Origin: Actinomycetota bacterium
Lineage (GTDB): Bacteria; Actinomycetota; Actinomycetes; Actinomycetales; Microbacteriaceae
DNA: 64,000 nucleotides
NCBI GenBank assembly: GCA_018268455.1
Contig: JAFDWM010000003.1
Location: forward strand, 8,211-72,210
Direction of reading: 5' to 3'
The position numbers and the translations under genes are program-made. Position 1 is the first letter of the stretch. Every line of letters begins with the position of its first letter. Below, one piece after another: positions 1-64,000 of the stretch. The notes beneath the pieces are model-generated. The model was not told where the DNA came from. It worked only from the letters and a program-made list of their open reading frames with translations, and did not search any database.

Positions 1-549
1 GATCAGGGCCGTCTGTTCACCGTCGTCGGCGCGATGCTGGAGAACCCGGACGATCCGCTGTGGACCAACCCGAAGATCGGCGTCGCCAGCCGCGAGGAGA
101 TGCTCGCGCTGTCGGCGGGGCAGGCGTACGACGAGCTCGCGAAGGCGCAGGGCGCGGATCCGACGCGGTGGCACTGGGGCGAGCTGCACGCGATCACGCT
201 CACGCACCAGACACTCGGCAAGAGCGGCATCGCGCCGATCGAGTGGCTGTTCAACCGCGGCCCGTTCCCGATCGGCGGTGGATCCTCGCTCGTCGACGCC
301 ACCGGCTGGCCGCTGGGCGGTTCGTATGCGGCGACCACCGTGCCGTCGATGCGGATGGTGGTGGATCTCTCCGACTTCGACGCCTCGACGTGGAACCACC
401 TCACCGGCGCGAGCGGTCACGCCTTCGGCCCGCACTACACCGATCAGACGGAGAACTGGTCGAAGGGGCTGCAGTCGCCGTGGCCGTTCTCGGCGAAGGC
501 CGTCGACAGGGCCGCCGTGGACACCCTCGTGCTCGCGCCGAAGGGCTGA
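1..549 (+). CDS. penicillin acylase (penicillin amidase) family protein, C-terminal part; the 5' end lies outside the window
   Basis: The frame is open from nt 1. The translation (...RWHWGELHAITLTHQTLGKSGIAPIEWLFNRGPFPIGGGSSLVDATGW...SMRMVVDLSDFDASTWNHLTGASGHAFGPHYTDQTENW) resembles the conserved C-terminus of the Ntn-hydrolase penicillin amidase family. Confidence 0.8.
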   Translation, partial: DQGRLFTVVGAMLENPDDPLWTNPKIGVASREEMLALSAGQAYDELAKAQGADPTRWHWGELHAITLTHQTLGKSGIAPIEWLFNRGPFPIGGGSSLVDATGWPLGGSYAATTVPSMRMVVDLSDFDASTWNHLTGASGHAFGPHYTDQTENWSKGLQSPWPFSAKAVDRAAVDTLVLAPKG

Positions 550-609
550 GCCCGCGGCACGCCTGCCGCCGACGCCGACGCCGAGGTGTCCGTGCGGCGG
601 TGCCCGCGA

Positions 610-2106
610 TCAAGGCTCCCAGGTGTGCACGGGATCGCCGGCGTGCATGCGCTCCAGATAGTCGGCGAGCATACCGTGCAGCGCCTCTGAGCGCGTCGCA
701 CCGGCGCGCTCGCGGGCGGCGACGTTCTCCCGCTGCCAGACCGCGCCGTTGCGCCCGGTCAGGCAACGCTGCTCGATGACGCCCAGATACCGGTCTCGCT
801 CGGTCGGATCCACTCCGTACGCGTCGAGGCCCTCCGCCGCCGCGGGCAGCAGCCGACGCAGCACCAGCTCGCGCGGGCCGATCCAGCCCACTTCCGGCCA
901 GTACAGGCGCGACTCGATGCCGTCCCGCGCGGCGGAGTGCAGATTCTCCTCGGCGGCATCGAAGGTCATCTGCGTCCACAGCGGACGGTCGGCGGCGGCG
1001 AGCGCCCGCACCAGGCCGTAGTAGAACGCGGCGTCGGCGAGCACGTCGACGATGCTGGGACCGGCCGGCAGCACCCGATTCTCCAGGCGCAGGTGGTAAC
1101 CGCCGCCGGATCCGTCATAGATCGGACGGTTCCACCGGTACACCGTGCCGTTGTGCATGCGCAGCTCCGACAGCGCTGGCGCACCGCCGCGAGCGAGCAC
1201 CTCGAACGGATCCTCGTCGCTGGTCACCGGCAGCAACGCGGGGAAGTACCGCGAGTTCTCCTCGAACAGGTCGAAGATCGACGTCACCCAGCGCTCCCCG
1301 AACCACACCCGCGGGCGCACGCGCTGGTTCTTCAGCTCGACCGAGCGGGTGTCGGTCGCCTGCTCGAACAGCGGGATGCGCGTCTCGTGCCAGAGCGCCT
1401 TCCCGGCGAAGAAGGGCGAGTTGGCGGCGAGCGCGACCTGCACGCCCGCGATCGCCTGCGCGGAGTTCCAGTACGCGGCGAACTCGGTCGGATCCACCTG
1501 CAGGTGCAGCTGAACCGATGTGCACGCGGCTTCGGGCAGGATCGTGTCGCAGACGATGTCGAGCGTCTCCCTGGCGCCGCCGTCGATGAGCGCCGGTCCG
1601 TCCAGGCGCAGTTCGATGTCCTCGCCGCGGGCGGCGAGGATCTGCTGACTGAGCAGGTCGTACCGCGGATCCGCCGACAGCCATTCCCCGGTGAAGTGAT
1701 GCTCGTCGAGAGTCGGCAGCATGCCGATCATGGCGAGCCCGCAGCCGGTGCCGCGCGCCCTCTCGTCAGCCGCGTTCAGCGAGGTTCGCAGTGCCTGCTC
1801 CAGCTCGGTGACGCTGCTCCCGGCGAGCGGCCGGGGCTCGACGTTGATCTCGATGTTGAACTGGGCGAGCTCGGTCTGGAACGCCGGGTCGGCGATCGCG
1901 TCGAGCGCCGCCGCGTTCGCCATCGCCGGGTCGCAGGCCTCGTCGACCAGGTTGAGCTCGATCTCGAGGCCGAGCCGCGGCTCCGACACCTCGAACTGCC
2001 CGTCCGCGAGCATCACGGCGAGCGCATCCAGACAGCGTGCCGTCTTCTCGCGGAACCTGGTGCGGTCCTGCCGCGTGAAGACGCGTTCGTCGACGTGGTC
2101 TCCCAT
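610..2106 (-). CDS. glutamate--cysteine ligase family 2 (GCS2) / carboxylate-amine ligase
   Basis: 498-aa ORF with non-repetitive composition. The N-terminus ...GLEIELNLVDE... and overall length fit actinobacterial GCS2-type ligases. Confidence 0.8.
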   Translation of the reverse strand: MGDHVDERVFTRQDRTRFREKTARCLDALAVMLADGQFEVSEPRLGLEIELNLVDEACDPAMANAAALDAIADPAFQTELAQFNIEINVEPRPLAGSSVTELEQALRTSLNAADERARGTGCGLAMIGMLPTLDEHHFTGEWLSADPRYDLLSQQILAARGEDIELRLDGPALIDGGARETLDIVCDTILPEAACTSVQLHLQVDPTEFAAYWNSAQAIAGVQVALAANSPFFAGKALWHETRIPLFEQATDTRSVELKNQRVRPRVWFGERWVTSIFDLFEENSRYFPALLPVTSDEDPFEVLARGGAPALSELRMHNGTVYRWNRPIYDGSGGGYHLRLENRVLPAGPSIVDVLADAAFYYGLVRALAAADRPLWTQMTFDAAEENLHSAARDGIESRLYWPEVGWIGPRELVLRRLLPAAAEGLDAYGVDPTERDRYLGVIEQRCLTGRNGAVWQRENVAARERAGATRSEALHGMLADYLERMHAGDPVHTWEP

Positions 2107-2205
2107 GGCGAGAAGCTACTCGACCCGGCGCTGCCGCGTCGAGAGCGGATCCGCGGCGAGGCGCCCGCCTGCCGACAGCCAGTCGCGCCGTCCTACGCTG
2201 GTCAC

Positions 2206-38734: not shown

Positions 38735-38742
38735 CCGCGGAC

Positions 38743-39989
<1,247 letters not shown>

Positions 39990-39993
<4 letters not shown>

Positions 39994-41372: not shown

Positions 41373-41388
41373 GGGACGAGGTGAGCAG

Positions 41389-42846
41389 ATGACCAAGGAG
41401 CTGAGACGGATCAGCATCCTCGTGCTGGTCATGTTCCTCGCGCTGTTCGGCTCGGTGAGCTGGATCCAGGTCGTGCAGGCCGACGCGCTCGGGCAGAACG
41501 AGGCGAACCGCCGCACCCAGCTGGACAGCTACGAGATCCAGCGCGGATCCATCATCGCCGGCGGATCCCCGATCGCGACCTCCGTGCCGTCGAACGACAT
41601 GTACTCGTTTCAGCGGGTATACACGGATCCGCAGATGTGGGCGGCCGTGACCGGCTACTACAACCCCGTGCTGGGCACCGCGACCGGCATCGAGAAGGCC
41701 ATGAACAGCGAGCTCAGCGGCACCGGCGGCTCGCAGTTCCTGTCGTCGATCGAGCGCATCATCTCGGGTCAGCCGCAGAAGGGCGCCAACGTCCAGCTCA
41801 GCCTGAACCCGGCGGCGCAGAAGGCGGCCTACGACGCCCTGCAGGGCCTGAACGGCGCCGTCGTCGCGATCGAACCGAAGAGCGGCCGGATCCTGGCACT
41901 CGTCTCCACTCCGGGCTTCGACACGAACACGCTCGCCGTGCACAACGGCAAAGAGGTGAACTCGACCTACGACGCGCTGGTCGCGGATCCGAGCAAGCCG
42001 CTCTCGAATCGCGCCATCGCCGGCAACCAGAACCCGCCCGGCTCCACCTTCAAGCTCGTCGTGGCCACCGCGGCGCTGGATTCCGGCAAGTTCACGATGC
42101 AGTCGACCTTCCCCAATCCCGCCGCGTACACGCTGCCCGGAACCACCGCGGCCGTGCACAACGCCTGGGGCGGCACCTGCGGCGACGGCCCCACCGTGAC
42201 GCTCGCCGATGCGATCCGGCTCAGCTGCAACATCCCGATGGCCGAGCTCGCCGTGCAGCTCGGAGACGACCCGATCCGGGCCACGGCGGAGAAGTTCGGC
42301 TTCGGCACGCAGTTCGCACTGCCGCAGCTGTCCGGCGTCTCCACCTACCCGAAGAGCCTGTCGCCCGACCAGACCGGCCTCACCGGCTTCGGCCAGGGCG
42401 ACGTGCGCGCCACCCCGCTGCAGATGGCGCTGGTCGCCGCCGGGATCGCCAACAACGGCGTGGTGATGAACCCGCACATGGTCGATCGGGTCGAGGCCGA
42501 TGATCTCTCCGTGCTGAAGCAGTTCGACCGCACCCAGTTCCGCCAGGCGATGACCGCGGATCAGGCACGCGCATTGACCGCCGCCATGCAGGCGTCAGTC
42601 TCAAGCGGAGCCGCGCAGGGTGCAAGAATAGACGGTGTCGACGTGGCCGGTAAGACGGGCACCGCGGAGAACGGTGACAGCGATCCCTACACGCTGTGGT
42701 TCACCGGATTCGCGCCCGCTTCGAACCCGGAGATCGCCGTGGCGGTCGTCGTCGAAGACGGCGGTGGTCAAGGACAGTCCGGATCGGGTGATGCGATCGC
42801 ATCACCGATCGCCAAGAAGGTCATGGAGGCGGTGCTGAACAGATGA
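41389..42846 (+). CDS. pbpA: class B penicillin-binding protein (transpeptidase)
   Basis: N-terminal TM; the STFK, SCN and KTGTAE motifs were read directly; 485 aa. Confidence 0.9.
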
Positions 42847-44588
42847 GGCCGACGCAGGGTGTGCATTTCGGCGGTCGCTACGAGCTGCAGTCGCGGATCG
42901 CTATCGGCGGCATGGGCGAGGTGTGGGAGGCGACCGACCACGTCATCGGGCGAACCGTGGCGATCAAGATCCTCAAGGACGAGTACATGGGGGATCCGGG
43001 CTTCCTCGAGCGCTTCCGCGCCGAGGCCCGGCACGCCGCGCTCGTGAACCATGAGGGGATCGCGAGCGTCTTCGACTACGGCGAGGAGAACGGATCCGCC
43101 TACCTCGTCATGGAGCTCGTGCCCGGCGAGGCGCTGTCCACCATCATCGAGCGCGAGGGATCCCTCAGCGCCGACAAGACCCTCGACATCGTCGCGCAGA
43201 CCGCGTCGGCGCTGCAGGCCGCGCACGCCGCGGGCCTGGTGCACCGCGACATCAAGCCCGGCAACCTGCTGATCACGCCGGACGGCCGGGTGAAGATCAC
43301 CGACTTCGGCATCGCCCGCATCGCCGATCAGGTGCCGCTCACCGCCACCGGACAGGTGATGGGCACCGTGCAGTACCTGTCACCGGAGCAGGCGTCGGGT
43401 CACGCCGCCTCGCCCGCCACCGACATCTACTCGCTGGGCATCGTGGCGTACGAGTGCCTGGCCGGGAAGCGTCCGTTCACGGGCGAGTCGCAGGTCGCGA
43501 TCGCGATGGCGCAGATCAACGACGCCCCGCCGCCGCTGCCCGCGACCGTGCCGCAGCCGGTGCAGAACCTCGTGATGGCGATGATCGCGAAGAAGCCGGC
43601 CGACCGCCCCTCGTCGGCCGCGACCGTGGCCCGCGCCGCTCAGGCGCTGCGCCGCGGCGACCTGAACTCGGCCGCGATCGCCGTGCCGGCGATCGTCGCG
43701 GGAGTCGTCGGCTCGGTCGCGACGGCCGGCGGCGACGACGCGATGACGCAGCTGCTCGGCGCCACCCAGGGCGCCACCACGATCATGCCGACCACGGCGC
43801 AGCTGCCGACGGAGGCCGCGCAGGGTGACGAGGGCCCGAAGAAGAAGAAACGCAGCCCGTGGACGGTGCCGCTGATCGCGCTCATCGCGCTGCTCGTACT
43901 GGTGCTCGGCGCCACGGTGTGGGCGCTGCTGGCGAACCAGGGCAACGCGGGTCCGGTGCAGACCTCGACCCCGCCGCAGACCACGCAGCCTCCGCAGACC
44001 AAGACCCCCACCCCGACGAAGACCCCCGGGGTGGCCATCGGGTCGCTGGGCCTGATCGGCAAGACCTGCGACGACGCCGTCGCCGTGCTCAAGCAGAACC
44101 ACCTGGACGGCACCTGCTCGACCGGCGACCACGCGCCCGACGCCCAGCACGTCGGCCTGGTGCAGCGCACCGACCCCAGCGGCGGCAACGTGCCGACCGG
44201 CACGGTCGTGAAGCTCACCGTGTACGGCGACATGGTCTCGGTCGGCGCGCCCGACTCTCCGCCGACGCTCGGCGGGCCCGCCGTGGCCGGCAAGACCGTG
44301 CAGTTGAGCTGGGCCGGGTACGTGTGCCCGAGTGGCACCGGAAACGTCGTCGGCTACAACGTCACACTCACCAACGCGACGTTCCCGGGGGCGGGATCCC
44401 AGCAGGGCTTCAACGCCAGCACGCTGAGCGCCGAGATCTCGGTCGCCAACCAGCCCGGATCCCAGGTCACCGCGACCTACACGGCGCTGTGCGGCGACGA
44501 GAAGCGTGAGACCGGGGCATCCCCGCAGATGGCGCAGACGATCGAACCGTCCTCGACGCCGGCACCGACACCGACGCCGACGCCCTGA
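42843..44588 (+). CDS. Ser/Thr protein kinase (pknA position) with TM and an extracellular PASTA-like plus Ig/Fn3-like region
   Basis: The start overlaps the pbpA stop (ATGA). Kinase motifs are [31 protein letters not shown] and SPEQ. After the TM ([25 protein letters not shown]) comes an extracellular segment of about 215 aa. Confidence 0.85.
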
Positions 44589-44620
44589 CGGGAATTGCGA
44601 TCCGGGGGGACCGCAGGAGC

Positions 44621-46372
44621 ATGACAGACAGAGACAGAGGGGGGCCATCCGTGTCGACGAGCACGCGCGTCATGGCGGGCCGCTACCGGGTCGATGACCT
44701 GATCGGCCGTGGCGGCATGGCGCAGGTGCACCGTGGGTACGACCTGACCCTCGGCCGCGACGTCGCGATCAAGATCCTCGACCGCGAGCTGGCCCGCGAC
44801 GCCGCCTTCCGCACCCGGTTCCGGATGGAGGCGCAGGCCGCGTCGCGGATGTCGCACCCCACGATCGTGCGGGTCTACGACGCCGGCGAGGATCCGTCGG
44901 CCGAGGCCGGCGGGACGACGGCCGAGCCTGTGCCGTTCATCGTCATGGAGCTCGTGCGCGGCGAGCTGCTCAAGGACGTCATCGCCCGCGGGCCGGTGCC
45001 GACCGCCGACGCCGTGCGGTATGCGGACGGGATCCTCGAGGCGCTCGAGTACTCGCACCGTGCCGGAGTCGTGCACCGCGACATCAAGCCGGGCAACGTC
45101 ATGATCACTCCCTCCGGCGCGGTGAAGGTGATGGACTTCGGCATCGCCCGCGCCGTCTCCGACTCGTCGTCGACGGTCGCCGAGACGACCCAGATCATCG
45201 GCACCGCGGCGTACTTCTCGCCCGAGCAGGCCAAGGGCGAGCAGGTCGACGCACGCACCGACCTGTACTCCACGGGTGTCGTGCTGTACGAGATGCTCAC
45301 CGGCCGGCAGCCGTTCCGCGGCGAGTCGCCCGTCGCCGTCGCCTATCAGCATGTGAGCGAGACGCCGCTGCCGCCCAGCGAGGCGCACGACGACGATCAC
45401 CCCGCGCCCGAGCTCGACCGGATCCGCGCCCTCGAGCCGGTCGTGTTGCGCGCGATGGCCAAGGATCCGTTCCAGCGCTTCCCCGATGCGCGCTCGTTCC
45501 GCACCGCGCTGGCCGGCTCGGCGACCGGATCCGTGCCGACCAAGAGGCAGCTGCACTCTCTCACCAGCGAGCTGTACGGCCCCAACCCGCGGCATGCGCA
45601 GGAGACCGCGCGCACGCTGCGTCAGCTCTCCAGCGACACCACGATGACCCGCACGCAGTCCGGGCCGCCGGTGGCGTGGATCTGGGCCGGCGTCGCGCTG
45701 CTCATCGTGCTGCTCGCCTCGGTGCTCATCTGGGTCGTGACCATGAAGCCGGCCAGCGGCGTCCCCGACGCAGGCCGCACTGTGCCGAACGCGGTCGGCC
45801 AGACCTACGAGACGGCGGTCTCTCTGCTGAGCCGCGAGGACCTGCGGGCGATCCGGATCGACCAGGCCGACGCCACCGTCGACAAGGGCAAGGTCATCAG
45901 CACGGATCCCGCGGCGGGCAGCCAGCTCGACAAGGGTCAGTCGGTGACCGTCTACGTCTCCTCCGGCGCGTCGGAGGTGACCGTACCGGCGCTCGTGGGG
46001 CTCAGCGCGACCGCCGCGAAGGATGCGATCGGAAAGGCCGGCCTGCAGCTCGGTACGGTGACCCAGCGGAACGATCCGCAGACCCAGCACGACATCGTGC
46101 TGTCCTCCAGCGTGGCGGCCGAGACGAAGGTCGCTCCAGGCACGGTGGTCGATCTCGTCGTCGCCAGCGGCGTCGTGACGCTCAACGACCTCACCGGCTG
46201 GACGGTCGATGCGGCGACTCAGGCGCTGCAGCAGGCCGGTCTCACCGCCAACCCGGTGCAGAATCCGAACTGCAAGGCCACGGATCCGAAGACCGTCGCC
46301 TCGATGTCGGCGGCACCCGGTGATGTTCCCGTGCAGTCGACCATCGACCTGACGGTCTGCACCGGGAAGTAG
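44621..46372 (+). CDS. pknB: Ser/Thr protein kinase PknB with three PASTA repeats
   Basis: Kinase motifs are [34 protein letters not shown] and SPEQ, followed by a TM and three PASTA-like units of about 65 aa. The start may be 44621, GTG 44651 or ATG 44672. Confidence 0.9.
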   Translation: MTDRDRGGPSVSTSTRVMAGRYRVDDLIGRGGMAQVHRGYDLTLGRDVAIKILDRELARDAAFRTRFRMEAQAASRMSHPTIVRVYDAGEDPSAEAGGTTAEPVPFIVMELVRGELLKDVIARGPVPTADAVRYADGILEALEYSHRAGVVHRDIKPGNVMITPSGAVKVMDFGIARAVSDSSSTVAETTQIIGTAAYFSPEQAKGEQVDARTDLYSTGVVLYEMLTGRQPFRGESPVAVAYQHVSETPLPPSEAHDDDHPAPELDRIRALEPVVLRAMAKDPFQRFPDARSFRTALAGSATGSVPTKRQLHSLTSELYGPNPRHAQETARTLRQLSSDTTMTRTQSGPPVAWIWAGVALLIVLLASVLIWVVTMKPASGVPDAGRTVPNAVGQTYETAVSLLSREDLRAIRIDQADATVDKGKVISTDPAAGSQLDKGQSVTVYVSSGASEVTVPALVGLSATAAKDAIGKAGLQLGTVTQRNDPQTQHDIVLSSSVAAETKVAPGTVVDLVVASGVVTLNDLTGWTVDAATQALQQAGLTANPVQNPNCKATDPKTVASMSAAPGDVPVQSTIDLTVCTGK

Positions 46373-46378
46373 TGCTGC

Positions 46379-46552
46379 TCAGCCCCCGGTCGGCGACGGC
46401 TCGATGCTGACGTCGCCGGGGGAGATGAGCGGGCTCACCCACGGGAACACCCAGAACAGCAGCGCGTACAGCACCGCCGCCAGCAGAGCCATCAGGATCA
46501 GCACCCGCAGCCACCACGGGCCGGGCAGGATCCGCCAGAGCGCCGCATACAT
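46379..46552 (-). CDS. small hypothetical membrane protein (57 aa), below the ORF-track size cut-off
   Basis: Hand translation gives MYAALWRILPGPWWLRVLILMALLAAVLYALLFWVFPWVSPLISPGDVSIEPSPTGG. The ATG abuts the sortase stop codon, and there is one clear TM helix. Confidence 0.45.
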   Translation of the reverse strand: MYAALWRILPGPWWLRVLILMALLAAVLYALLFWVFPWVSPLISPGDVSIEPSPTGG

Positions 46553-47338
46553 TCAGCTCACCGCCGTCAGGGACGCCGGTTCGCCCAGTGCACGGGGCTG
46601 GAAGCCCTCGAAGACGCCGTAGGCGATGATCCGCTCGGCGAGTGAGTACAGCGGCGAGCATGCCGTGAGAGTGATGTATGGCCGCCCGGCCGGTGCCTCC
46701 GGCATCTGCGGCACCGGATCCAGCACGTCCACGCTGTCCGGCGTCACGTACTCCAGCGTGCGGAACCGGTAGGTGTACCAGCCTTGCGCGGTCTCGATCA
46801 CGATGGCGTCTCCGATATGCAGCCGGTCGAGCTGGTTGAACGGCTTTCCCCAGGTGGTGCGGTGCGCGGCCATCGAGAAGTTGCCCGCCTGCCCGGGCAT
46901 GCCCGCGTACGGATAGACGCCGATCCAGCCGTGATCCAGCGTGTCCGCGCGCGTGACGCCTCCGGCGATCTGCACGTTGTAGTCGGATCCCCACCGCGGC
47001 ACCCGCAGCTGCGCGCCCCACGGCACGCCGTTCTCGGGCGGGGCCATCACGGGCGGCGTGTACTGTACGGGGCGACCGTCGACACCGGATCCGTCCTCGA
47101 TCGGCGGCCGGGCGGGCGCCGGCTCCTTCGCCCACGCCTGGGAGATCTGCTGGCCCTTCTCGTTCGAGGCCGCACTCATGATGAGGTCTCCGATCCACAT
47201 CTGCCACGCGACGAACAGCAGCACGATCGCACCGGCGGTGAGCAGCAGCTCTCCGAGCACACTCGTGACGGTCACCGGGCGACGAGCGCCGGATCGGCGC
47301 GGGATTCCGCGCCCCGTGGCGTCCCGGGCGTCGATCAT
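46553..47338 (-). CDS. class E sortase
   Basis: N-terminal TM, a catalytic TLTAC (TLxTC) motif and a conserved His region. The position next to crgA/pknB is typical for actinobacterial SrtE. Confidence 0.85.
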   Translation of the reverse strand: MIDARDATGRGIPRRSGARRPVTVTSVLGELLLTAGAIVLLFVAWQMWIGDLIMSAASNEKGQQISQAWAKEPAPARPPIEDGSGVDGRPVQYTPPVMAPPENGVPWGAQLRVPRWGSDYNVQIAGGVTRADTLDHGWIGVYPYAGMPGQAGNFSMAAHRTTWGKPFNQLDRLHIGDAIVIETAQGWYTYRFRTLEYVTPDSVDVLDPVPQMPEAPAGRPYITLTACSPLYSLAERIIAYGVFEGFQPRALGEPASLTAVS

Positions 47339-47427
47339 GCCGCGATCCTACCGAGCCCGGGTCTGCGCACGTCGTCGGCGACGTCGGCGCCCCGTGAAGC
47401 GCCGGGGCTCATGGGTAGACTGGGCGC

Positions 47428-47667
47428 ATGGCACGATCCCGCAAGTCCGAAGACGTCGAAGCCCCGAAGGCGGAGGGCGACGCCGCCCCCAACGCCGTGT
47501 GGTTCAAGCCGGTCATGATCGGCTTCATGCTGCTGGGACTGGCGTGGATCCTGGTGTTCTACATCACCGGCATGCAGTACCCGATCCCGGGTCTGCAGTC
47601 GTGGAACCTGCTGATCGGTCTGGGCATCGCCCTGATCGGCTTCCTGATGACCACCCGCTGGCGCTGA
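47428..47667 (+). CDS. crgA: cell division protein CrgA
   Basis: 79 aa with two TM helices (WFKPVMIGFMLLGLAWILVFYIT...WNLLIGLGIALIGFLMTTRWR). Confidence 0.9.
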   Translation: MARSRKSEDVEAPKAEGDAAPNAVWFKPVMIGFMLLGLAWILVFYITGMQYPIPGLQSWNLLIGLGIALIGFLMTTRWR

Positions 47668-47686
47668 CCCGCCCCGACCGCTCTCC

Positions 47687-47718
47687 GAGAACGCCCCCGC
47701 CTGCGCGGGGGCGTTCTC
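47687..47718 (+). terminator. intrinsic terminator downstream of crgA
   Basis: GAGAACGCCCCCGC-CTGC-GCGGGGGCGTTCTC (14-bp stem), followed by GCGTTTCGG. Confidence 0.6.
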
Positions 47719-47767
47719 GCGTTTCGGATCCATTCCGGACCCATTCCGGATCCGGAATCTCGCAGGC

Positions 47768-47852
47768 TTATCCCCCGTTCCGCCGAGTTATCCACACTCT
47801 GGGGAGGACTTTGCACACCGCCTCCCCGAAGTTATCCACAGATCTATCCCCA
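47768..47852 (+). promoter_or_regulatory. cluster of DnaA-box-like 9-mers, all in the same orientation
   Basis: TTATCCACA lies at 47788-47796 and 47832-47840 (the exact E. coli consensus). TTATCCCCC lies at 47768-47776 and CTATCCCCA at 47844-47852. Confidence 0.5.
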
Positions 47853-47948
47853 CCTGGGGAGAATTACACGGGTGTGATTCACGCCGGCCCGGATACGCCG
47901 CAGGCCCCCGCCGAAGTGAGGGCCTGCGGATGAGGACTGCGGGCGAGG

Positions 47949-48839
47949 TCAGTGCCCGGCGGTGATGAGCAGCGGCGGCACGATCGCCACCACCGCCAGC
48001 AGCACGACCGTGAGGGCCGACACGAGGCCGATCCACCAGAACCGGGAGCTTGTGCGGCCGCCCGTGCGCGCATAGATGAGGCCGATCAGCCCGCCGACGA
48101 CCGCGCCGCCGACGTGCGCCTCCCAGGCGATCCCCGGCACGATGAACCCGTATGCGAAGTTGATCGCGAGCACGACCAAGGCGCCGACGATGTTGCCACC
48201 GAGGTGACGGGCGATCACGATGAGCGCGACGAACACGCCGAAGATCGCCCCCGACGCCCCCACCGTGGGCTGCGCCGGCGCGATCAGCGCCATGGCGACG
48301 GATCCGCCGAGGCCGCTCACGAGATACAGCGTGAGGAACTTCGCGCGGCCCAGCAGCGGCTCGAGCTGCTGTCCGACCATCCACAGGGCGAGCATGTTGA
48401 GGCCGAGGTGGATGAGGCCGCCGTGCACGAGCAGCGCGGTGAGCATGCGCCACGGCTCGAACGGCAGTCCGGACAGCGACGGATACAGATACGCGCCGGC
48501 GAACTGCAGCGCACCCGTGAGCGGTCCGCCGATCCCCGGCACCAGCTGCAGCAGGCTGACCGCCGCCGTGATCGCCATGATCACATACGTGACTACGGGG
48601 CGACCGCCGACGGCGGTCAGGGAGCGCGCGCCCCAGCGCCGGTTCGCGCGGCGCTGGGCCGGCGTCTGGTCGCGGCGCTGCTGCTGCATGCACTCCGGGC
48701 AGATCACGCCGACCGGCGCTTGCGTCTGACACTCCGGGCAGATGGTGCGCATGCACCGCTGGCACAGCACGAAGCTCTGCCGCCCGGGGTGGCGATAGCA
48801 GAAGTTGTCGGGATTCGCGTGGAACTCCGGTGTCGTCAT
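47949..48839 (-). CDS. rhomboid family intramembrane serine protease with an N-terminal zinc-ribbon
   Basis: CYRHPGRQSFVLCQRCMRTICPECQ (Cys4), then TM segments with HLGLNMLALW and GASGAIFG (GxSG). The start is taken at ATG 48839. Confidence 0.85.
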   Translation of the reverse strand: MTTPEFHANPDNFCYRHPGRQSFVLCQRCMRTICPECQTQAPVGVICPECMQQQRRDQTPAQRRANRRWGARSLTAVGGRPVVTYVIMAITAAVSLLQLVPGIGGPLTGALQFAGAYLYPSLSGLPFEPWRMLTALLVHGGLIHLGLNMLALWMVGQQLEPLLGRAKFLTLYLVSGLGGSVAMALIAPAQPTVGASGAIFGVFVALIVIARHLGGNIVGALVVLAINFAYGFIVPGIAWEAHVGGAVVGGLIGLIYARTGGRTSSRFWWIGLVSALTVVLLAVVAIVPPLLITAGH

Positions 48840-48873
48840 GCGTCTGCTCCGGAGTCCTCGCGCGGATCCGGGG

Positions 48874-49431
48874 TCAGTTGGCGACGATGTCGACGGACTG
48901 CAGCACCACGTCCTCGACGGGACGGTCTCCCGCACCGGTGCGCACGGCCGCGATCTCGTCGACGACGGCCTTGGAGGCCTCGTCGGCGACCTCGCCGAAG
49001 ATCGTGTGCTTTCCCTGCAGCCAGGGGGTCGGGTCGGTGGTGATGAAGAACTGCGAGCCGTTGGTGCCCTCGGCCTGACCGGTGATGGCGTTGCGGCGCA
49101 GGCCGGCGTTCGCCATCGCGAGCACGTACGGCTCGTTGAAGTTCAGCTCGCCGTGGATCTCGTCGTTGAAGGTGTAGCCGGGGCCGCCGACGCCCTGGCC
49201 GAGCGGGTCACCGCCCTGGATCATGAAGTTGGGGATGATGCGGTGGAAGATGACGTCCTTGTACAGGGCGCCCTCGCCGGGCTTGCCGGTCGCAGGGTGC
49301 GTCCAGGATCCGGTGCCGTCGGAGAGTTCGACGAAGTTCTTCACCGTGCGGGGAGCGTGGTCACCGTAGAGGTTGATGACGATGTCTCCGTGGTTGGTGT
49401 GCAGCGTGGCGACGTGAGTGGCGTGAGGCAT
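48874..49431 (-). CDS. ppiA: peptidyl-prolyl cis-trans isomerase (cyclophilin type)
   Basis: HTNHGDIVINLYGDHAPRTVKNFVEL, FHRIIPNFMIQGGDP, GSQFFIT and HTIFGEV. The start is taken at ATG 49431. Confidence 0.92.
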   Translation of the reverse strand: MPHATHVATLHTNHGDIVINLYGDHAPRTVKNFVELSDGTGSWTHPATGKPGEGALYKDVIFHRIIPNFMIQGGDPLGQGVGGPGYTFNDEIHGELNFNEPYVLAMANAGLRRNAITGQAEGTNGSQFFITTDPTPWLQGKHTIFGEVADEASKAVVDEIAAVRTGAGDRPVEDVVLQSVDIVAN

Positions 49432-49541
49432 GCGTCTATTCTCGCATCGGATCCCAGGAAGTTCTCCGACGCACACCCGTCACACAGGACCTCGTCTGGC
49501 AAGATGGGAGATCCGAACCCCGTTTCGATTGGGAGGGCATC

Positions 49542-50051
49542 GTGGGCCTGAGCCGCAAGCGTCAGAAGGAACTCCGTCAGCTCCAGGGCGAAGCCGCAAA
49601 GCTGTGGGCCGCCCAGCAGGTCGTGGCAGGGGAAGCCGTGGGCGTCGCCCGCGAAGCCGGCCGCCAACTGGACAACTTCCGGCGAGAGCAGGTCGTCCCC
49701 GCCGTGCAGGACGTCTACGAGCACCGCGTGGTGCCGGCCGTCGACCGGGGCGTCAAGTTCTCCCGCGACGTCGTCGACAACCGGGTCATCCCCGCCGTCG
49801 GCGGCGTGATCGGATCCGCGCTCACCGCGTGGGACATCGCCAACTCCAAGCGCGCCGGCGGCTCGACCGCCCCCCGCGCGGTGGTCACCGTCGCGCCCGA
49901 GCCCCGCAAGGGCCTCGGCATCGGCGCGATCATCGCCCTCGTGCTCGGCGCCGCCGCCGCCGTGGGTGTGCTCGTCGCCGCCTGGCAGGCCCTGCGTGCG
50001 GATGACGAGCTCTGGGTCGCGGACGACCCGCTGAGCGCCCCCGAGGCGTGA
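49542..50051 (+). CDS. hypothetical membrane-anchored protein with three V(V/I)PAV repeats
   Basis: GTG start preceded by GGGAGGG. Charged helical N-terminus, three short repeats and one C-terminal TM (GIGAIIALVLGAAAAVGVLVAAW). Confidence 0.6.
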   Translation: MGLSRKRQKELRQLQGEAAKLWAAQQVVAGEAVGVAREAGRQLDNFRREQVVPAVQDVYEHRVVPAVDRGVKFSRDVVDNRVIPAVGGVIGSALTAWDIANSKRAGGSTAPRAVVTVAPEPRKGLGIGAIIALVLGAAAAVGVLVAAWQALRADDELWVADDPLSAPEA

Positions 50052-50548
50052 GCACCGAGACCCCCTCGATGTCCGGCGGATCCGTCGGACATGAGCGCGT
50101 GCGCGACGCCGCCGCGGCACGAGGCCTCGACATCGAGATCCTCCAGCGTCCGGCGGCGAACAGCCTGCGCGAGGCCGCGGCGCTGCTCGGCCTCGAACCC
50201 GGTGGCATCGTGAAGACCCTCGTGGTCAAGCGCAGCGACGACACCTTCCTGTTCGCGCTGATCCCCGGCGGGCGCAAGATCAGCTGGCCGAAGCTGCGCG
50301 CCGTCGTCGGCGTGAACCGGCTGAAGCTGCCGGAGGCGGACGTGGCGCTGGCGGCGACCGGGTACGAGCGCGGCACGATCGTTCCGATCGGCAGTACGAC
50401 CGACTGGCCGGTGTTCGCCGACGAGTCGATCCGCGGGCAGCGCATCGCGATGGGCGCGGGTGCGCACGGCTACAGCCTCTTCGTCGACGCCGACGCCCTG
50501 ATCGACGCATACGGCGCGACGGTCGCCGACATCTCCGACCCGGAGTGA
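50048..50548 (+). CDS. YbaK/EbsC-family aminoacyl-tRNA deacylase domain protein
   Basis: The start overlaps the upstream stop (GTGA). ...IVKTLVVKRSDDTFLFALIPGGRKISWPKL...GYERGTIVPIG...; 166 aa. Confidence 0.8.
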   Translation: MSTETPSMSGGSVGHERVRDAAAARGLDIEILQRPAANSLREAAALLGLEPGGIVKTLVVKRSDDTFLFALIPGGRKISWPKLRAVVGVNRLKLPEADVALAATGYERGTIVPIGSTTDWPVFADESIRGQRIAMGAGAHGYSLFVDADALIDAYGATVADISDPE

Positions 50549-52093: not shown

Positions 52094-52138
52094 GTTCGAG
52101 CGGATCCGGTCGCCGGCGTCCCCGGGTGACCGGATCCG

Positions 52139-53002
52139 TCACTCGCCGCGCAGATGCGCGGCGGTGAGCTCGGCCATCTCGTCATCGCTGAGCTCGTCCA
52201 GGCTGCGCGACTCGCGCTTGTCCATCCGGATCCAGCGCATCATCAGGATCACCAGGATCGGCACGTCGACGATCTCGGCGATGAACCACAGGAAGTCGCC
52301 GGAGAGATGCTGGTCGTGCAGGGGGTTCGGGAACCAGCCCGGCATCCCGGGGACGACCCGCGTGACGCCATCGAGCACGCTGTCGTTCAGGCGCAGCAGG
52401 ATCCCGGGGATCGCGTCCAGCAGCAGCTCCACGAACGCGAACAGGAACTCGGCGACGATGAAGAGCCCCGTGCGCAGCACCGTGTGCGCGGCCATCGGAA
52501 GCACCATAAGCAGGCCGAGCACCGGCACCAGCACGCTGGTCAGCCCCTGCGCGACCGGGCTCATCCGCAGGGTCGCGGCGAGCGGGGTGAAGAACACCGC
52601 GAACACCAGGCAGGTGAACACCGGCGCCATGATCGCGTTGCCGAAGAACTTCGCGAGCCATGAGCGCAGGAACCCGTTCACCCGGGCCCGCGGCCGCGCG
52701 GAGAGCACGGCGCGCGCGAGCGATACCGGGCGACCGAGCGTGAGCAGCACCGGCACCACGAACAGCAGCAGCGCGATGCGGGTCGTGAAGGCCCAGCGGA
52801 TCTGCGTGCTCCAGGTGCCGAGGAACCCGAACGACACCCAGGCATAGGATCCGAGCCCTAGCAGCAGGAACATCAGGGTGAGTCGCAACGGCCAGCGGTG
52901 CCCTCGGCGACGCAGCACCAGCACCCCGCCGAGGTACAGCGCGGCGGCCACGATGAGCACCCCCAGAGCCACGGGATCCAGGCTCCAGGTGCTGAGGAAC
53001 AC
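52139..53002 (-). CDS. cytochrome c oxidase assembly protein (caa3 CtaG-like membrane protein)
   Basis: This is the 3' 864 nt of the 877-aa track ORF. An in-frame GTG at 53002 gives VFLSTWSLDPVALGVLIVAAALYLGGVLVLRRRGHRWP..., the typical family N-terminus, with about 7 TM. The upstream part of the track ORF is Arg/Pro-rich and antisense to pepQ. Confidence 0.7.
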   Translation of the reverse strand: MFLSTWSLDPVALGVLIVAAALYLGGVLVLRRRGHRWPLRLTLMFLLLGLGSYAWVSFGFLGTWSTQIRWAFTTRIALLLFVVPVLLTLGRPVSLARAVLSARPRARVNGFLRSWLAKFFGNAIMAPVFTCLVFAVFFTPLAATLRMSPVAQGLTSVLVPVLGLLMVLPMAAHTVLRTGLFIVAEFLFAFVELLLDAIPGILLRLNDSVLDGVTRVVPGMPGWFPNPLHDQHLSGDFLWFIAEIVDVPILVILMMRWIRMDKRESRSLDELSDDEMAELTAAHLRGE

Positions 53003-54515: not shown

Positions 54516-54596
54516 CCCAACTTCGGAGCGCGGATCCGACACGCCGTGCCGTGTGTCCATCCGCACGGCGTGTCGCCGCTCTGCTCCGAAGTTGGG
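54516..54596. repeat. 81-nt double-palindrome intergenic element (CCCAACTTCGGAG...GACACGCCGTGC...GCACGGCGTGTC...CTCCGAAGTTGGG)
   Basis: Outer 13-bp and inner 12-bp perfect inverted repeats, lying between convergent genes. A second copy is at 61174..61253. Confidence 0.8.
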
Positions 54597-58373: not shown

Positions 58374-58447
58374 AGGGCGCTTCCGGCTCGTCGGGAGAGG
58401 GAATGGTGCTGCGGGGCCGGATCCGCGTGGATCCGGCCCCGCAGGGC

Positions 58448-61173: not shown

Positions 61174-61253
61174 CCCAACTTCGGAGTTCGTGGCCGACAC
61201 GCCGTACGGAGCACGGATCCCCCGGCGTGTCGGCCCGCAGCTCCGAAGTTGGG
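61174..61253. repeat. second copy of the CCCAACTTCGGAG...CTCCGAAGTTGGG double-palindrome element
   Basis: CCCAACTTCGGAG-TTCGTGGCC-GACACGCCG-...-CGGCGTGTC-GGCCCGCAG-CTCCGAAGTTGGG. Confidence 0.8.
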
Positions 61254-62167: not shown

Positions 62168-62174
62168 CCGTCCA

Positions 62175-62795
62175 TCATGCAGGCTCGACCTGTGCGGCGC
62201 CCGGCCTGGCGCTGTGCTTCGGGCGGGCGGAGTCCAGCAGCGGCAGCGCGATGTGCACGAGCGGGCCGATGCCGAGCGCGAACACCACCGTGCCGATGCC
62301 GACGGTACCGCCGAGCAGCCAGCCGATCACCAGCACTGTGAGCTCGACGCTCAGCCGCGCGGCCCAGATCGGCCAGCCCAGGCGCTCGTGCATGCCCGTC
62401 ATGAGGCCGTCGCGTGGCCCCGGCCCGAACCGCGCCCCGATGTAGAGTCCGCTGGCGATCGCGACGACCACCACAGCCGCCAGGAGCACCAGCACCTGTG
62501 CGAGCAGGCCCTCCGCCGGCGGCACGACCGTGATCGTGGCCTGGATGGCCGTGCCCACGAGCAGCACGTTCAGCACGGTGCCGACGCCGGGACGCTGACG
62601 CAGCGGGATCCACAGCAGCAGCACCAGCAGGCCGACGATGTTGGTGATCCAGCCCACGCCGATGCCGGTCCGGGCGGCGAGTCCCTCGGCGAACACGGTC
62701 CACGGGTCGACGCCCAGGCCGGCGTCGATCATGAGCCCGCAGCCGAACCCGTACAGCGCGAGCCCGATGAGCAGTTGCAGCATCCGTCGTGTCAT
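62175..62795 (-). CDS. YczE/YitT-like membrane protein
   Basis: 206 aa with 5-6 TM (LLIGLALYGFGCGLMIDAGLGVDPWTVF...). It is divergently paired with a MocR-type regulator, a common arrangement. Confidence 0.7.
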   Translation of the reverse strand: MTRRMLQLLIGLALYGFGCGLMIDAGLGVDPWTVFAEGLAARTGIGVGWITNIVGLLVLLLWIPLRQRPGVGTVLNVLLVGTAIQATITVVPPAEGLLAQVLVLLAAVVVVAIASGLYIGARFGPGPRDGLMTGMHERLGWPIWAARLSVELTVLVIGWLLGGTVGIGTVVFALGIGPLVHIALPLLDSARPKHSARPGAAQVEPA

Positions 62796-62856
62796 GGATC
62801 CATGATGCGGGAGAACTGGCCTGTTGAGACCAGTCCAATCGCTTTATGCTGGCCCC

Positions 62857-64000
62857 ATGGACTCCCGGCTCTCCGCCCGTGCCCTCGTCGAGCTGCTCGG
62901 CCTCTGGCGCACCAGCGACCCTGCCTTCGCGGCGCTGGCGGACGGGATCCGCCTGCTCTGCCTGGACAACCGGATTGCACCGGAGACGGCGCTGCCCGCC
63001 GAGCGCGAGCTCGCGACGGCGCTCGGAGTGAGCCGCACCACGGTCGCGGCCGCCTACGGCAGTCTGCGCGGCACCGGGCACATCCTGAGCCGGCAGGGCT
63101 CGGGCAGCGTCACCCGGCCGCTCGGGCGCACGGCGTCCAACCGCTGGTTCGACCGCGGCGGCATCGACCTGCAGCAGGCGAGCCCGCCGGCCTGGCCGGG
63201 GCTTCCGGGCGTGATCGCCGAGGCCGCGGCCGGGGCGACCGCCCTCGTCTCGCGCTCCGGCTTCGACATCCTGGGCCACGTCGAGCTGCGGGCCGCGATC
63301 GCCGACCGGTACACGCACAACGGTCTCCGCACGGATCCGGACCAGATCATGGTCACCACCGGCGCGCAGCACGCGCTGGGGCTCATCGCCCGCACCCTGC
63401 TGCGCCGAGCCGACCGGGTGCTCATCGAGACGCCGAGCTACCCGCACGCGATGGAGACGTTCCGGCATGCCGGAGGGCGACTCGTGGGTGTACCGGTCGA
63501 CGCGGCGCACGGCTGGGACCTCGACCGTGCCGCGCAGGCCTTCGCCCGCACCCGGCCCGTGCTGGCCTACCTCATGCCCGAGTTCCAGAACCCGACAGGC
63601 CGACGGATGACCGCCGCGGAGCGGGCGGCGTTCGAGTCGGCGGCCGCCGATGCCGGATCGGCGTTGCTCATCGACGAGACCACAGCCGACCTCGCGATCG
63701 ACGATCTGCCGCCGCTGCGCCCACTCGGGGCCGACGACGAGGCGACCATCCGGGTCGGATCCCTCGGCAAGAGCGTGTGGGGCGGGCTGCGGATCGGGTG
63801 GATCCGTGCCGGCGATGACCTGATCCGGCGCCTGCGCGCGGCCCGCCCGGCCCAGGACCTGGGCACGCCCGATCTGGAGCAGGCGATCGCGACCCGCGTG
63901 GTGGGGCTGCTCGACGAGATCCTCCCGCAGCGTGCCGCCCTGCTGCGCGCCGGCCGTGACACACTCACCGCCGCGCTCGCCCGCGAGCTGCCCGAGTGGA
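62857..64000 (+). CDS. MocR-family regulator (GntR HTH fused to a PLP-dependent aminotransferase-like domain); the 3' end lies outside the window
   Basis: This ORF is not in the track because it has no stop in the window. Hand translation from ATG 62857 gives MDSRLSARALVELL...LPAERELATALGVSRTTVAAAYGSLRGTGHILSRQGSGSVT, then ...VTTGAQHALGLIARTLL...ETPSYPHA...NPTGRRM...GSLGKSVWGGLRIGWI. Confidence 0.85.
   Translation, partial: MDSRLSARALVELLGLWRTSDPAFAALADGIRLLCLDNRIAPETALPAERELATALGVSRTTVAAAYGSLRGTGHILSRQGSGSVTRPLGRTASNRWFDRGGIDLQQASPPAWPGLPGVIAEAAAGATALVSRSGFDILGHVELRAAIADRYTHNGLRTDPDQIMVTTGAQHALGLIARTLLRRADRVLIETPSYPHAMETFRHAGGRLVGVPVDAAHGWDLDRAAQAFARTRPVLAYLMPEFQNPTGRRMTAAERAAFESAAADAGSALLIDETTADLAIDDLPPLRPLGADDEATIRVGSLGKSVWGGLRIGWIRAGDDLIRRLRAARPAQDLGTPDLEQAIATRVVGLLDEILPQRAALLRAGRDTLTAALARELPEW

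Follow-up and report, generated by a model that had tools for sequence, protein, structure and literature searches.

A lineage-specific excess of the hexamer GGATCC in Microbacterium, following a one-base change in a word favoured across the genus

Microbacterium has a hexamer that is iterated genus-wide, and GGATCC is one local form of it; most members of the genus favour GGATGC/GCATCC. A single one-base change of that word, at the base of the clade formed by M. azadirachtae and M. resistens, gave GGATCC, and GGATGC/GCATCC afterwards decayed to expectation there. The pressure behind the excess targets the exact six-letter word, a pattern that points to a putative word-specific DNA-recognition system. 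The window studied here, that is, the whole stretch of 64,000 bases that was analysed, is part of a Microbacterium chromosome near oriC, and it was compared with 80 congeneric loci; its features are collected in Table 1.

The over-representation of GGATCC in the window was confirmed under several models. The word occurs 193 times, or 3.0/kb at 70.1% GC, which is 8.96 times the zero-order expectation and agrees with the roughly ten-fold excess reported in a preliminary description of this DNA, whose local counts (12 in positions 1-2,900 and 13 in 60,001-64,000) were exact. Words containing GATC generally lie 4-9x over zero-order expectation in the window. A maximal-order Markov model, suggested earlier as a check, also places the count far from expectation (112 expected, observed/expected 1.72, z ~7.6), and this is the highest Markov z among all hexamers in the window. 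When synonymous codons were permuted inside genes, so that proteins and codon usage were kept, 37.5 +/- 4.7 coding copies were expected and 145 were found (3.9x, z ~23), ranking GGATCC first of 4096 hexamers. These coding copies are distributed 54/44/47 over the phases GGA-TCC, xGG-ATC-Cxx and xxG-GAT-CCx, as the earlier claim of occurrence in all three frames had it, while CGATCG, a codon-usage-driven word, falls 94% in one phase. The base before the word is C in 116/193 cases (60%) and the base after it is G in 107/193 (55%), matching the C-GGATCC-G flanks already noticed. The sequence contexts of the sites are diverse. Spacing along the window cannot be told from random (CV 1.08 vs 0.99 +/- 0.07).

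Table 1. Positions of the features discussed, in window coordinates.
Feature	Position	Strand	Details
Dispersed GGATCC copies	1..64000	.	145 inside called genes, 48 outside
Long intergenic hairpin	23481..23530	.	one GGATCC per arm, at 23492 and 23513; -42.1 kcal/mol predicted
TetR-family gene	23724-24332	-	TetR_N match; 3' end contains 23727..23751
Three GGATCC (23727, 23740, 23746)	23727..23751	-	coding; two abut as GGATCCGGATCC
Non-syntenic accessory island adjoining tRNA-Leu	29646..36717	.	lower GC at third codon positions
Hairpin GGTCCCGGATCC-GTC-GGATCCGGGACC	37110..37136	-	stem holds two GGATCC (37116, 37125); -30.9 kcal/mol predicted
tRNA-Leu(CAG)	37145-37229	-	
Conserved genes fhaA, fhaB, pstP, rodA, pbpA, pknA, pknB and genes just downstream	37533..50548	.	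Pfam matches
Perfect 16-nt palindrome ATTCCGGATCCGGAAT	47743..47758	.	convergent intergenic spacer; half-length 8
Hairpin	52100..52139	.	stem starts and ends with CGGATCCG; -32.0 kcal/mol predicted
Inverted-repeat element, copy 1	54517..54595	.	~80 bp, intergenic; arms CCAACTTCGGAG / CTCCGAAGTTGG; -52.7 kcal/mol predicted
Hairpin GCGGGGCCGGATCC-ACGC-GGATCCGGCCCCGC	58412..58442	-	-33.2 kcal/mol predicted
Inverted-repeat element, copy 2	61175..61252	.	81% identical to copy 1

Within Microbacterium the excess is lineage-specific. GGATCC reaches 1.5-2.8/kb in loci of the M. azadirachtae clade and ~1.1/kb in the sister M. resistens, with which that clade is monophyletic in a neighbour-joining tree of 13 proteins, and 0.42/kb pooled (range 0.14-0.75), the chance level, in the remaining 67 loci. 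The pooled clade density is 2.40/kb, a 5.7x difference from those 67 loci (z 65), and CGGATCCG is 10x as frequent in the clade as in the other loci. The largest excess lies in short intergenic DNA, the place where a further check had been proposed: the density in spacers of 20-300 bp is 7.8/kb for the window, 4.4/kb across the clade and 0.32/kb in other Microbacterium. The pressure appears to be genome-wide; it is equal on both strands and independent of frame, transcription direction and spacer type. The codon null and the congener loci together bear out the proposal of a lineage-specific, DNA-level process beyond codon and dipeptide effects, and the interpretation in the preliminary description is, overall, partly supported.

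The switch of word is evident from the same codon-preserving null. In the outgroup, GCATCC (2.0x, rank 1) and GGATGC (2.6x, rank 2) lead, and GGATCC is unremarkable (1.07x, rank 1054); in the clade, GGATCC ranks first at 4.0x, with GGATGC at 1.08x and GCATCC at 0.89x. In the clade, depletion (0.42x) affects the exact precursor hexamer GGATGC/GCATCC alone and spares GCATCG, GCATCA and CCATCC. GGATGC/GCATCC is non-palindromic and one base away from GGATCC, and its orientations are balanced (1384 vs 1487, no strand skew). That other Microbacterium prefer this non-palindromic word in a similar way weakens the earlier stress on palindromes and restriction. The accessory island, which has orthologues in 0/80 of the Microbacterium loci, bears the word signature typical of other Microbacterium: it holds GGATCC at just 1.41/kb (P=0.002 for a low count, Poisson test) and GGATGC/GCATCC at 1.84/kb vs 0.70/kb elsewhere in the window. 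Since this recently acquired DNA lags, the word pressure works over time on resident DNA.

The pressure was gauged at each position of the word, and 13 genes from the conserved region were compared site by site with the 80 loci. At positions 1, 2, 3, 4 and 6 the log odds in the clade exceed those in the outgroup by 2.0-2.7, corresponding to odds of ~8-15-fold per testable position for any base change, alike for transitions and transversions. One-off variants of GGATCC stand at 1.2-1.35x at the outer positions and ~1x at the inner ones relative to other Microbacterium. Such exact-word, position-uniform specificity argues that a protein recognises the double-stranded hexamer, and we infer that its position-5 specificity changed from G to C. 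The pressure also forces the use of rare codons and brings about amino-acid replacements of a conservative kind. Within the clade, 90% of Asp residues in G_GAY_CC are written GAT (baseline 11-19%) and Gly-Ser is encoded GGA-TCC in 38% (3% expected), and the outgroup shows the same for its own word, with GAT in 64% of Asp in G_GAY_GC and GCA-TCC in 14.5% of Ala-Ser (2% expected). The earlier statement that disfavoured codons are forced thus holds for the overriding of codon preference but not for TCC, which is not disfavoured (30% of Ser). At 19/31 clade-specific sites in the conserved genes the peptide differs from that of the outgroup; these sites lie 1 to 6 substitutions from the commonest outgroup hexamer, and GGATCC sites trace to precursors 2 or 3 substitutions off, amino-acid changes included. 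Rare-codon GGATCC sites are retained among clade members at 0.48-0.65, vs 0.02-0.38 for look-alike words.

We tentatively favour, at somewhat below an even chance, a methylation-linked process like that of cyanobacterial HIP1. A resident DNA methyltransferase, probably an orphan, would mark the favoured word; marked words would be preferentially kept or created in repair or recombination, or their density would be selected, and the word would thereby rise far over mutational equilibrium. Support for the methylation link is indirect. In cyanobacteria, alternative iterated palindromes follow the specificity of the resident methyltransferase (PMC4390886). Like HIP1, GGATCC is a GATC-centred short palindrome at 2-3 copies per kb, is found in all frames of coding DNA as well as in non-coding DNA, overrides codon and amino-acid preference, tolerates one-off variants chiefly at outer positions, and is lineage-specific, with the word swapped for another in individual lineages. 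HIP1 differs in being a cyanobacterial octamer with observed/expected of 15-300x, whereas GGATCC is a hexamer at 4-9x in an actinobacterium, with a putative cognate methyltransferase. Two further differences count against the favoured reading: known HIP words are palindromic but ancestral GGATGC is not, and HIP1 is reported to be quasi-periodic whereas GGATCC spacing is random.

Lytic phages of Microbacterium bear on the methylation link as well. Three genomes of 41-50 kb hold 0, 0 and 0 copies of GGATCC where 14-17 are expected; GGATCC-specific restriction-modification enzymes, and with them methyltransferases, are thus probably in circulation within Microbacterium. GGATGC is not avoided (264 observed vs 210 Markov-expected, 1.26x), which counts against the link, since only an orphan methyltransferase could then act on GGATGC. 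Restriction-site avoidance resembles the present case in that it concerns palindromic hexamers, and these phages avoid GGATCC and many others, but the host clade is opposite in sign, with GGATCC strongly enriched. Also against a methylation link, a Pfam search covering 40/59 called genes gave no methyltransferase, restriction-enzyme or Vsr gene in the window; a BamHI endonuclease family search has no Microbacterium among the 120 matches listed; and no methylome data came to light. We also know of no settled route from methylation to a raised word frequency, even for HIP1.

The main rival to the methylation link is a DNA-uptake-like drive, in which an uptake or recombination protein would prefer word-bearing fragments, and recurrent import of DNA from the same species, followed by recombination, would enrich the word through molecular drive and give the clade a "dialect" of its own. 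We consider this unlikely, although several features recall the DUS of Neisseriaceae and the USS of Pasteurellaceae. There, too, both strands are equally over-represented (PMC3630211, PMC7371117), as the two orientations are here, and the word lies within genes and in terminator hairpins; in Microbacterium it occupies every frame, amino-acid changes included, and is enriched in intergenic DNA and terminator-like hairpins. The one-base switch between related clades parallels the one-base dialects of Neisseriaceae (PMC3630211), and the island, low in the resident word and high in a foreign dialect, parallels acquired islands without the resident dialect, such as the ICEs of Neisseriaceae that were detected through its lack (PMC7371117). 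HIP1 itself is now proposed as an uptake signal (bioRxiv 10.64898/2026.06.24.733823). On the other side, just 6-8 bases are informative here vs 9-12 in DUS/USS, own DNA would be favoured only ~6-fold over foreign high-GC DNA, and GGATCC is ~3x as dense as DUS/USS. DUS/USS systems further differ from Microbacterium, where competence, a receptor and uptake bias would be hypothetical; to our knowledge, natural transformation is unreported for the genus.

A little less probable again is that some abundant protein of the chromosome, such as a nucleoid-associated factor, binds the word and that natural selection keeps its sites dense. This would account for the exact-word specificity with even pressure per position, for denser sites where constraint is lower and for retention exceeding that of look-alike words. 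It accords poorly with random spacing, neither regular nor clustered, and with the finding that promoters, terminators and gene ends are not preferred; a fixed monomer or dimer would not readily pass from an asymmetric site to a symmetric one, and no candidate protein was identified.

A context-dependent mutation or repair bias, for example NucS-dependent mismatch repair, would need no word-recognising factor, and we regard it as improbable. NucS is encoded within the window (21078-21773), the pressure appears genome-wide and is strand-symmetric with the acquired island lagging, and the weak GGATGC excess in lytic phages of GGATGC-type hosts would fit host-imposed machinery. Such a bias should, however, shift families of related words, and the exact hexamer alone rises; transitions equal transversions at five positions, and sequence-context effects of polymerase or repair would hardly yield a one-base switch from one preferred word to another.

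The mechanism put forward in the preliminary description, in which a cytosine methyltransferase specific for GGATCC is coupled to a very-short-patch endonuclease of Vsr type that turns near-cognate T:G mismatches into GGATCC, fares poorly and is very improbable. E. coli Dcm/Vsr is a precedent for an over-represented methylated word, biased repair being able to over-represent a methyltransferase target, and GGATCC-specific restriction-modification is probably present in the genus. The Dcm/Vsr signature in E. coli is CCWGG up and CTWGG/CCWAG down; its depletion of T:G neighbours and its restriction to transitions were tested here and are absent (GGATTC/GAATCC 0.84x and GGATCT/AGATCC 1.23x vs other Microbacterium). 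The chief lost precursor involves a C-to-G transversion, pressure is equal over positions, sites were made via multi-step, non-synonymous routes, and a second system would be needed to explain why other Microbacterium favour GGATGC. Finally, the poor performance of zero-order expectations in high-GC coding DNA could suggest that the excess is artefactual, produced by codon or dipeptide usage, by high GC or by a mobile element present in repeated copies; this reading has a negligible chance of being correct and is refuted by the 3.9-4.0x that a protein- and codon-preserving null leaves, by congeners of equal GC and codon usage without the excess, and by the intergenic maximum.

Copies of GGATCC are present at all four places singled out at the outset (37107-37139, 23481-23530, 47743-47758 and 23727-23751), the last of which had been taken as non-coding and instead falls inside a TetR-family gene, at its 3' end. 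The building of the word into hairpins does not exceed chance, as pairs <=30 bp apart number 16 vs 16.7 expected under random placement; hairpins that hold two copies, being no commoner than chance, are a by-product of density and self-complementarity. One of them, 9 nt downstream of the tRNA-Leu(CAG) 3' end, is probably the terminator of that gene. Another sits between the solute-binding-protein and permease genes of an ABC transporter operon (58412..58442), and a third (52100..52139) in the 45-bp convergent spacer at 52094-52138, which contains 2 copies. Arms of the inverted-repeat element have 4 matches vs 0.14 expected, and GGATCC flanks copy 1 at 54532 and 54602. Site contexts and the alignment of the element copies show that the GGATCC sites are not carried by a mobile repeat; in the two copies the word falls in different alignment columns, so it arose in situ and was not element-borne.

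The hexamer GGATCC occurs 193 times, by scripted count, in the 64,000 bases of the window, which is 70.1% GC. This density of 3.0/kb is 8.96 times the zero-order expectation and bears out the roughly ten-fold excess given in the preliminary description, whose hand counts of 12 copies at 1-2,900 and 13 at 60,001-64,000 were exact. Against a maximal-order Markov model, under which 112 copies are expected, the excess is 1.72x (z ~7.6), the largest of any hexamer in the window; because the GGATC and GATCC pentamers are themselves swollen by GGATCC, this ratio is too low as a measure of the effect. The 59 genes called by third-position GC content, which make up 86% of the window, hold 145 of the copies, with the other 48 lying outside called genes. 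As had been claimed, every reading frame is used, the coding copies being divided 54/44/47 among the phases GGA-TCC, xGG-ATC-Cxx and xxG-GAT-CCx. When synonymous codons were shuffled within genes, so that proteins and codon usage were kept, 37.5 +/- 4.7 coding copies were expected in the window, an excess of 3.9x (z ~23) that ranks GGATCC first for enrichment among the 4096 hexamers. The C-GGATCC-G context remarked on earlier is also present (60% of the window's copies are preceded by C and 55% followed by G), and the information beyond the hexamer amounts to 0.13 bits at -1 and +1, with 0.14-0.32 bits at -1, +1 and +2 for the one-off word GGATGC.

The window carries the actinobacterial gene cluster fhaA, fhaB, pstP, rodA, pbpA, pknA and pknB, adjoining a tRNA-Leu, and its RodA shares no more than 92% identity with those of the genomes compared, the best match being Microbacterium azadirachtae. 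A set of 80 Microbacterium loci, each consisting of rodA with ~10 kb per side where the contig allowed (~1.5 Mb in total), is cleanly divided by GGATCC density. Loci L001-L011, in which RodA is at least 86% identical and which include M. azadirachtae and M. panaciterrae, have 1.5-2.8 copies/kb, and two M. resistens loci have 1.1-1.2/kb, compared with 0.14-0.75/kb, about the zero-order expectation, in the remaining 67 (the outgroup). Pooled density in the window and L001-L011, hereafter the clade, is 2.40/kb vs 0.42/kb in the others (5.7x, z 65), the clade sample being only ~270 kb drawn from the window and the surroundings of rodA; the pooled frequency of CGGATCCG in the clade is 10x that in the other loci. 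When 13 concatenated proteins are placed in a neighbour-joining tree, one clade unites L001-L011 and M. resistens with the window. Because GC content and codon usage are alike genus-wide, the excess is not one common to the relatives. The comparison with related lineages suggested in the preliminary description thus yields congeners with matching composition that lack the GGATCC excess, so shared codon usage is no explanation. Together with the synonymous-shuffle null, these same-composition congeners rule out an artefact of codon usage, dipeptides or GC content.

Compared with the rest of the genus, the clade shows strong depletion of just one word, GCATCC/GGATGC, which is one substitution from GGATCC and falls to 0.91/kb vs 2.15/kb in the others (0.42x; 0.30x in M. 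resistens). Among the 67 outgroup loci (within L012-L080), this is the top over-represented hexamer pair, at 1.47x the Markov expectation (z 14.6) and 3.1x the zero-order expectation. The depletion is restricted to the exact hexamer, as GCATCG (0.92x), GCATCA (0.87x) and CCATCC (1.06x) show in the clade, and since only exact GCATCC/GGATGC shifts, avoidance of GCATC (SfaNI-type) or GGATG (FokI-type) is ruled out as the driver.

Enrichment of the two words in coding sequence under the codon-preserving null
Group	GGATCC	GGATGC	GCATCC
Clade	4.0x (rank 1, z 39.5)	1.08x	0.89x
M. resistens	2.6x (rank 3)	0.55x (3 observed/5.4 expected)	1.02x
Outgroup	1.07x (rank 1054)	2.6x (rank 2, z 38)	2.0x (rank 1, z 40)

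Codon choice reflects both words. Clade members encode Asp by GAT in 90% of G_GAY_CC contexts vs a baseline of 11-19%, and 38% of their Gly-Ser pairs are GGA-TCC vs 3% expected; in the outgroup, where two rare codons, GAT and GCA, carry the GGATGC/GCATCC excess, GAT accounts for 64% of Asp in G_GAY_GC and 14.5% of Ala-Ser pairs are GCA-TCC vs 2% expected. The phases of GGATCC in the clade (200/138/188) contrast with those of CGATCG, a codon-usage-driven word found 94% in one phase. A genus-wide iterated hexamer has therefore changed by one base, once, from GGATGC to GGATCC. As the old word has fallen to codon-usage equilibrium, the pressure must be active and ongoing. The GGATGC excess is weaker in the M. 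oxydans/paraoxydans subclade than in other outgroup loci, and no replacement third word was found in that subclade. The clade has AGATCT at 2.2x its outgroup frequency (z 9.8), a word that stands at expectation in the window under the codon-aware null (13 observed vs 12.5, 1.04x); with AGATCC at only 1.23x, RGATCY is ruled out as the real target. GATC words apart from GGATCC are ~1.2x up in the clade.

The pressure targets DNA, not proteins or RNA. In 20-300 bp spacers, GGATCC reaches 4.4/kb in the clade and 7.8/kb in the window vs 0.32/kb in the outgroup, irrespective of whether a spacer is convergent, divergent or tandem, and this density, along with the 3.9-4.0x excess under the codon-preserving null, upholds the DNA-level process proposed earlier. 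Both strands are equally affected, with 1384 GGATGC and 1487 GCATCC (48:52) in loci oriented alike near oriC. At synonymously variable positions, the odds of the GGATCC-forming base in context relative to baseline were compared between clade and outgroup, and the log-odds differences are 2.7, 2.5, 2.4, 2.6 and 2.0 at positions 1, 2, 3, 4 and 6 (8-15-fold); the alternatives at these five positions span transitions and transversions, and the pressure is about equal. It is also specific to the whole word, the one-off neighbours of GGATCC being ~1x in the clade relative to the outgroup (1.2-1.35x for outer positions, 0.75-1.09x for inner ones). Thirteen conserved genes contain 31 clade-specific sites, at which the commonest outgroup hexamer is one (8 sites), two (10), three (9) or more (4) substitutions away, and at 19 of these sites the peptide also differs from the outgroup (for example GT/GG/GA/GR to GS, V to I, DA to DP and E to D). 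Arithmetic on codon-context counts puts Gly-Ser at +21% and Asp-Pro at +12% per coding kb in the clade, a DNA-level pressure thus measurably altering protein composition. Pairwise retention in the clade, from a small and phylogenetically non-independent sample, is 0.48, 0.72 and 0.65 by phase, where hexamers overall reach 0.48 and rare-codon look-alikes 0.02-0.38, a hint that sites may be maintained among clade members.

No regular spacing was found in the one 64-kb window (gap CV 1.08 vs 0.99 +/- 0.07 for random placement), a test that is blind to periods of 10-90 kb, and the GGATCC sites appear to evolve independently of one another. The larger GGATCC hairpins are stable, at a predicted -31 to -53 kcal/mol. 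The four motif-rich places listed in the preliminary description all hold the copies ascribed to them, but 23727-23751, taken there as non-coding, lies within the 3' end of a TetR-family gene. The idea that the word is built into hairpins fails on numbers, two-copy hairpins being no commoner than chance (16 pairs of sites at most 30 bp apart in the window vs 16.7 expected). Because spacing is random and the pair count is as expected, such hairpins are the product of a dense self-complementary word in GC-rich stems. One of them, beside tRNA-Leu(CAG), is probably the terminator of that gene. An inverted-repeat intergenic element (predicted hairpin -52.7 kcal/mol) is present twice with no Rfam match at either copy, and in the alignment the GGATCC columns differ between the two. 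A mobile repeat of the REP/MITE type is ruled out as carrier by these differing columns and by diverse flanks that lack an extended consensus. Three direct copies of GYCACCCTCGGTCC, each adjoining a GGATCC, occupy the spacer downstream of nucS.

Features of the window, with positions and strands
Feature	Position	Strand	Details
nucS (NucS/EndoMS mismatch endonuclease)	21078-21773	+	
Direct copies of GYCACCCTCGGTCC	21820-21993		
Accessory island	29646-36717		tRNA-Leu side
Hairpin with 12-bp stem	37110-37136		two GGATCC; 9 nt past the tRNA-Leu(CAG) 3' end
tRNA-Leu(CAG)	37145-37229	-	
Inverted-repeat element, copy 1	54517-54595		~80 bp; arms CCAACTTCGGAG / CTCCGAAGTTGG; copies 81% identical
Inverted-repeat element, copy 2	61175-61252		as copy 1

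The accessory island has an orthologue in 0 of the 80 Microbacterium loci, a lower third-position GC content, and genes for MarR, MFS, glyoxalase, WYL/HTH, TetR, NmrA and ASCH proteins. GGATCC is sparser in it than elsewhere in the window (1.41/kb vs 3.21/kb, P=0.002) and GGATGC/GCATCC denser (1.84/kb vs 0.70/kb). No att-like direct repeat of at least 13 bp was found for the island. On its word content, it looks like a recent import from a GGATGC-type Microbacterium relative, and, judged from this island, the build-up of the word takes time.

The closest known phenomena are the HIP1 palindrome of cyanobacteria and the DUS/USS dialects. HIP-type palindromes resemble GGATCC in showing an excess under both codon-aware and Markov models (3.9-4.0x and 1.72x for GGATCC, the clade sample being ~270 kb near rodA or in the window) and in occurring in all frames and in non-coding DNA, overriding codon and amino-acid preference. 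Tolerance of outer-position variants is likewise similar to that of cyanobacterial HIP1; HIP1 differs in its quasi-periodic spacing, the GGATCC gaps being random in the 64-kb window. Polar words such as Chi and KOPS/SRS are strongly strand-skewed, unlike GGATGC:GCATCC at 48:52, and GGATCC, as a palindrome, cannot be polar. We found no literature report that either GGATCC or GGATGC is over-represented in Microbacterium or elsewhere among Actinobacteria, nor any Microbacterium methylome.

A protein that reads the double-stranded hexamer, and whose specificity has changed, is inferred to impose the word. By analogy with cyanobacteria, a methylation-linked, HIP1-like process is the favoured mechanism. 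The alternative iterated palindromes of cyanobacteria track the specificity of resident methyltransferases (PMC4390886). A Pfam scan of 40 window genes turned up no methyltransferase, restriction enzyme or Vsr gene, the sole DNA-repair gene seen being nucS, and the best 120 of 740 matches contained no Microbacterium homologue of the BamHI endonuclease. NucS/EndoMS is the actinobacterial stand-in for MutS/MutL and, to our knowledge, nucS is universal in Actinobacteria; tying it to the word bias would be pure speculation.

The chief alternative, a molecular drive resembling that of DNA uptake sequences, would accommodate the dialect switch from GGATGC to GGATCC, the signature of the island and an ancestral word that is not a palindrome (PMC3630211, PMC7371117). 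DUS/USS share with the Microbacterium words a strand-equal over-representation and clade dialects, and their scarcity in recently acquired DNA is seen for GGATCC in the one island. The motif is short for that purpose, however: DUS/USS have an extended motif of 9-12 nt and GGATCC has only its 0.13 bits at -1 and +1. We also know of no natural competence in Microbacterium. A chromosomal protein whose binding sites are under selection, or a pure mutational context bias, is possible and fits less well. The methyltransferase coupled to Vsr-type repair proposed in the preliminary description is ruled against, because T:G-derived words are not depleted (GGATTC/GAATCC 0.84x, GGATCT/AGATCC 1.23x) and the pressure, rather than being a creation bias confined to C/T transitions, is equal at five positions, transversions included.

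A broader proposal, tentative and in our judgement somewhat unlikely, is that Microbacterium has a new 'watermark' system, in which a DNA-recognising factor with switchable specificity (GGATGC to GGATCC) drives or selects its own six-base word chromosome-wide. Candidates for the factor are an orphan methyltransferase and a component of the machinery for recombination, uptake or NucS repair; palindromy would be incidental, and the system would be the first of the HIP/DUS kind in Actinobacteria. If so, the switch and the decay of the old word would be a natural experiment through which phyletic profiling could find the reader protein. Iterated genomic words (HIP1 in cyanobacteria, DUS in Neisseriaceae, USS in Pasteurellaceae) have gone without explanation for decades. 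The GGATCC case extends these to another phylum, and it offers a single, clean change of one base between sister clades and a pressure whose strength, ~10-fold odds per position, can be measured. The one-base switch is its most useful property, making the responsible factor findable, since the M. azadirachtae/M. resistens clade and the other Microbacterium should differ in whether they have the gene or in its specificity-determining region. In clade genomes GGATCC also offers an inexpensive way to recognise recent acquisitions, and BamHI would cut unmethylated clade chromosomes roughly once per 330-400 bp.

Phages of the genus show the reverse of the clade's enrichment. Five lytic Microbacterium phages of 41-50 kb, namely Ilzat, Dismas, KaiHaiDragon, Fireman and Hyperion, whose hosts M. 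foliorum and M. paraoxydans are GGATGC-type or weak-type, contain 5, 0, 0, 0 and 11 GGATCC, respectively, vs 14-17 expected at zero order. Many other palindromic hexamers are also missing from the five, and the cluster EC phages KaiHaiDragon and Fireman additionally lack ACGCGT, AGGCCT, CAGCTG, CCATGG and CCCGGG. Such palindrome loss is the usual picture of restriction avoidance. It implies that GGATCC-specific restriction-modification probably circulates in Microbacterium, where GGATCC methyltransferases plausibly exist. GGATGC/GCATCC is not avoided by the phages (264 observed vs 210 Markov-expected and 158 zero-order expected) and is thus no restriction target in those hosts.

Hyper-abundance of GGATCC may recur in other lineages. 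A scan of IMG/VR viral contigs that required two nearby CGGATCCG returned a dispersed GGATCC excess of 6-14x zero-order in the unrelated contigs L188, L170, L172, L124 and L185. L188 (67% GC) has 38 GGATCC in 14.8 kb, one 57-bp match to a Microbacterium phage and no protein match, and L170, which resembles proteobacterial phages (siphoviruses), has 24 in 11.5 kb. L172, L124 and L185 are 47% GC, and L172 carries a tandem array in which spacings alternate between 11 and 22 bp.
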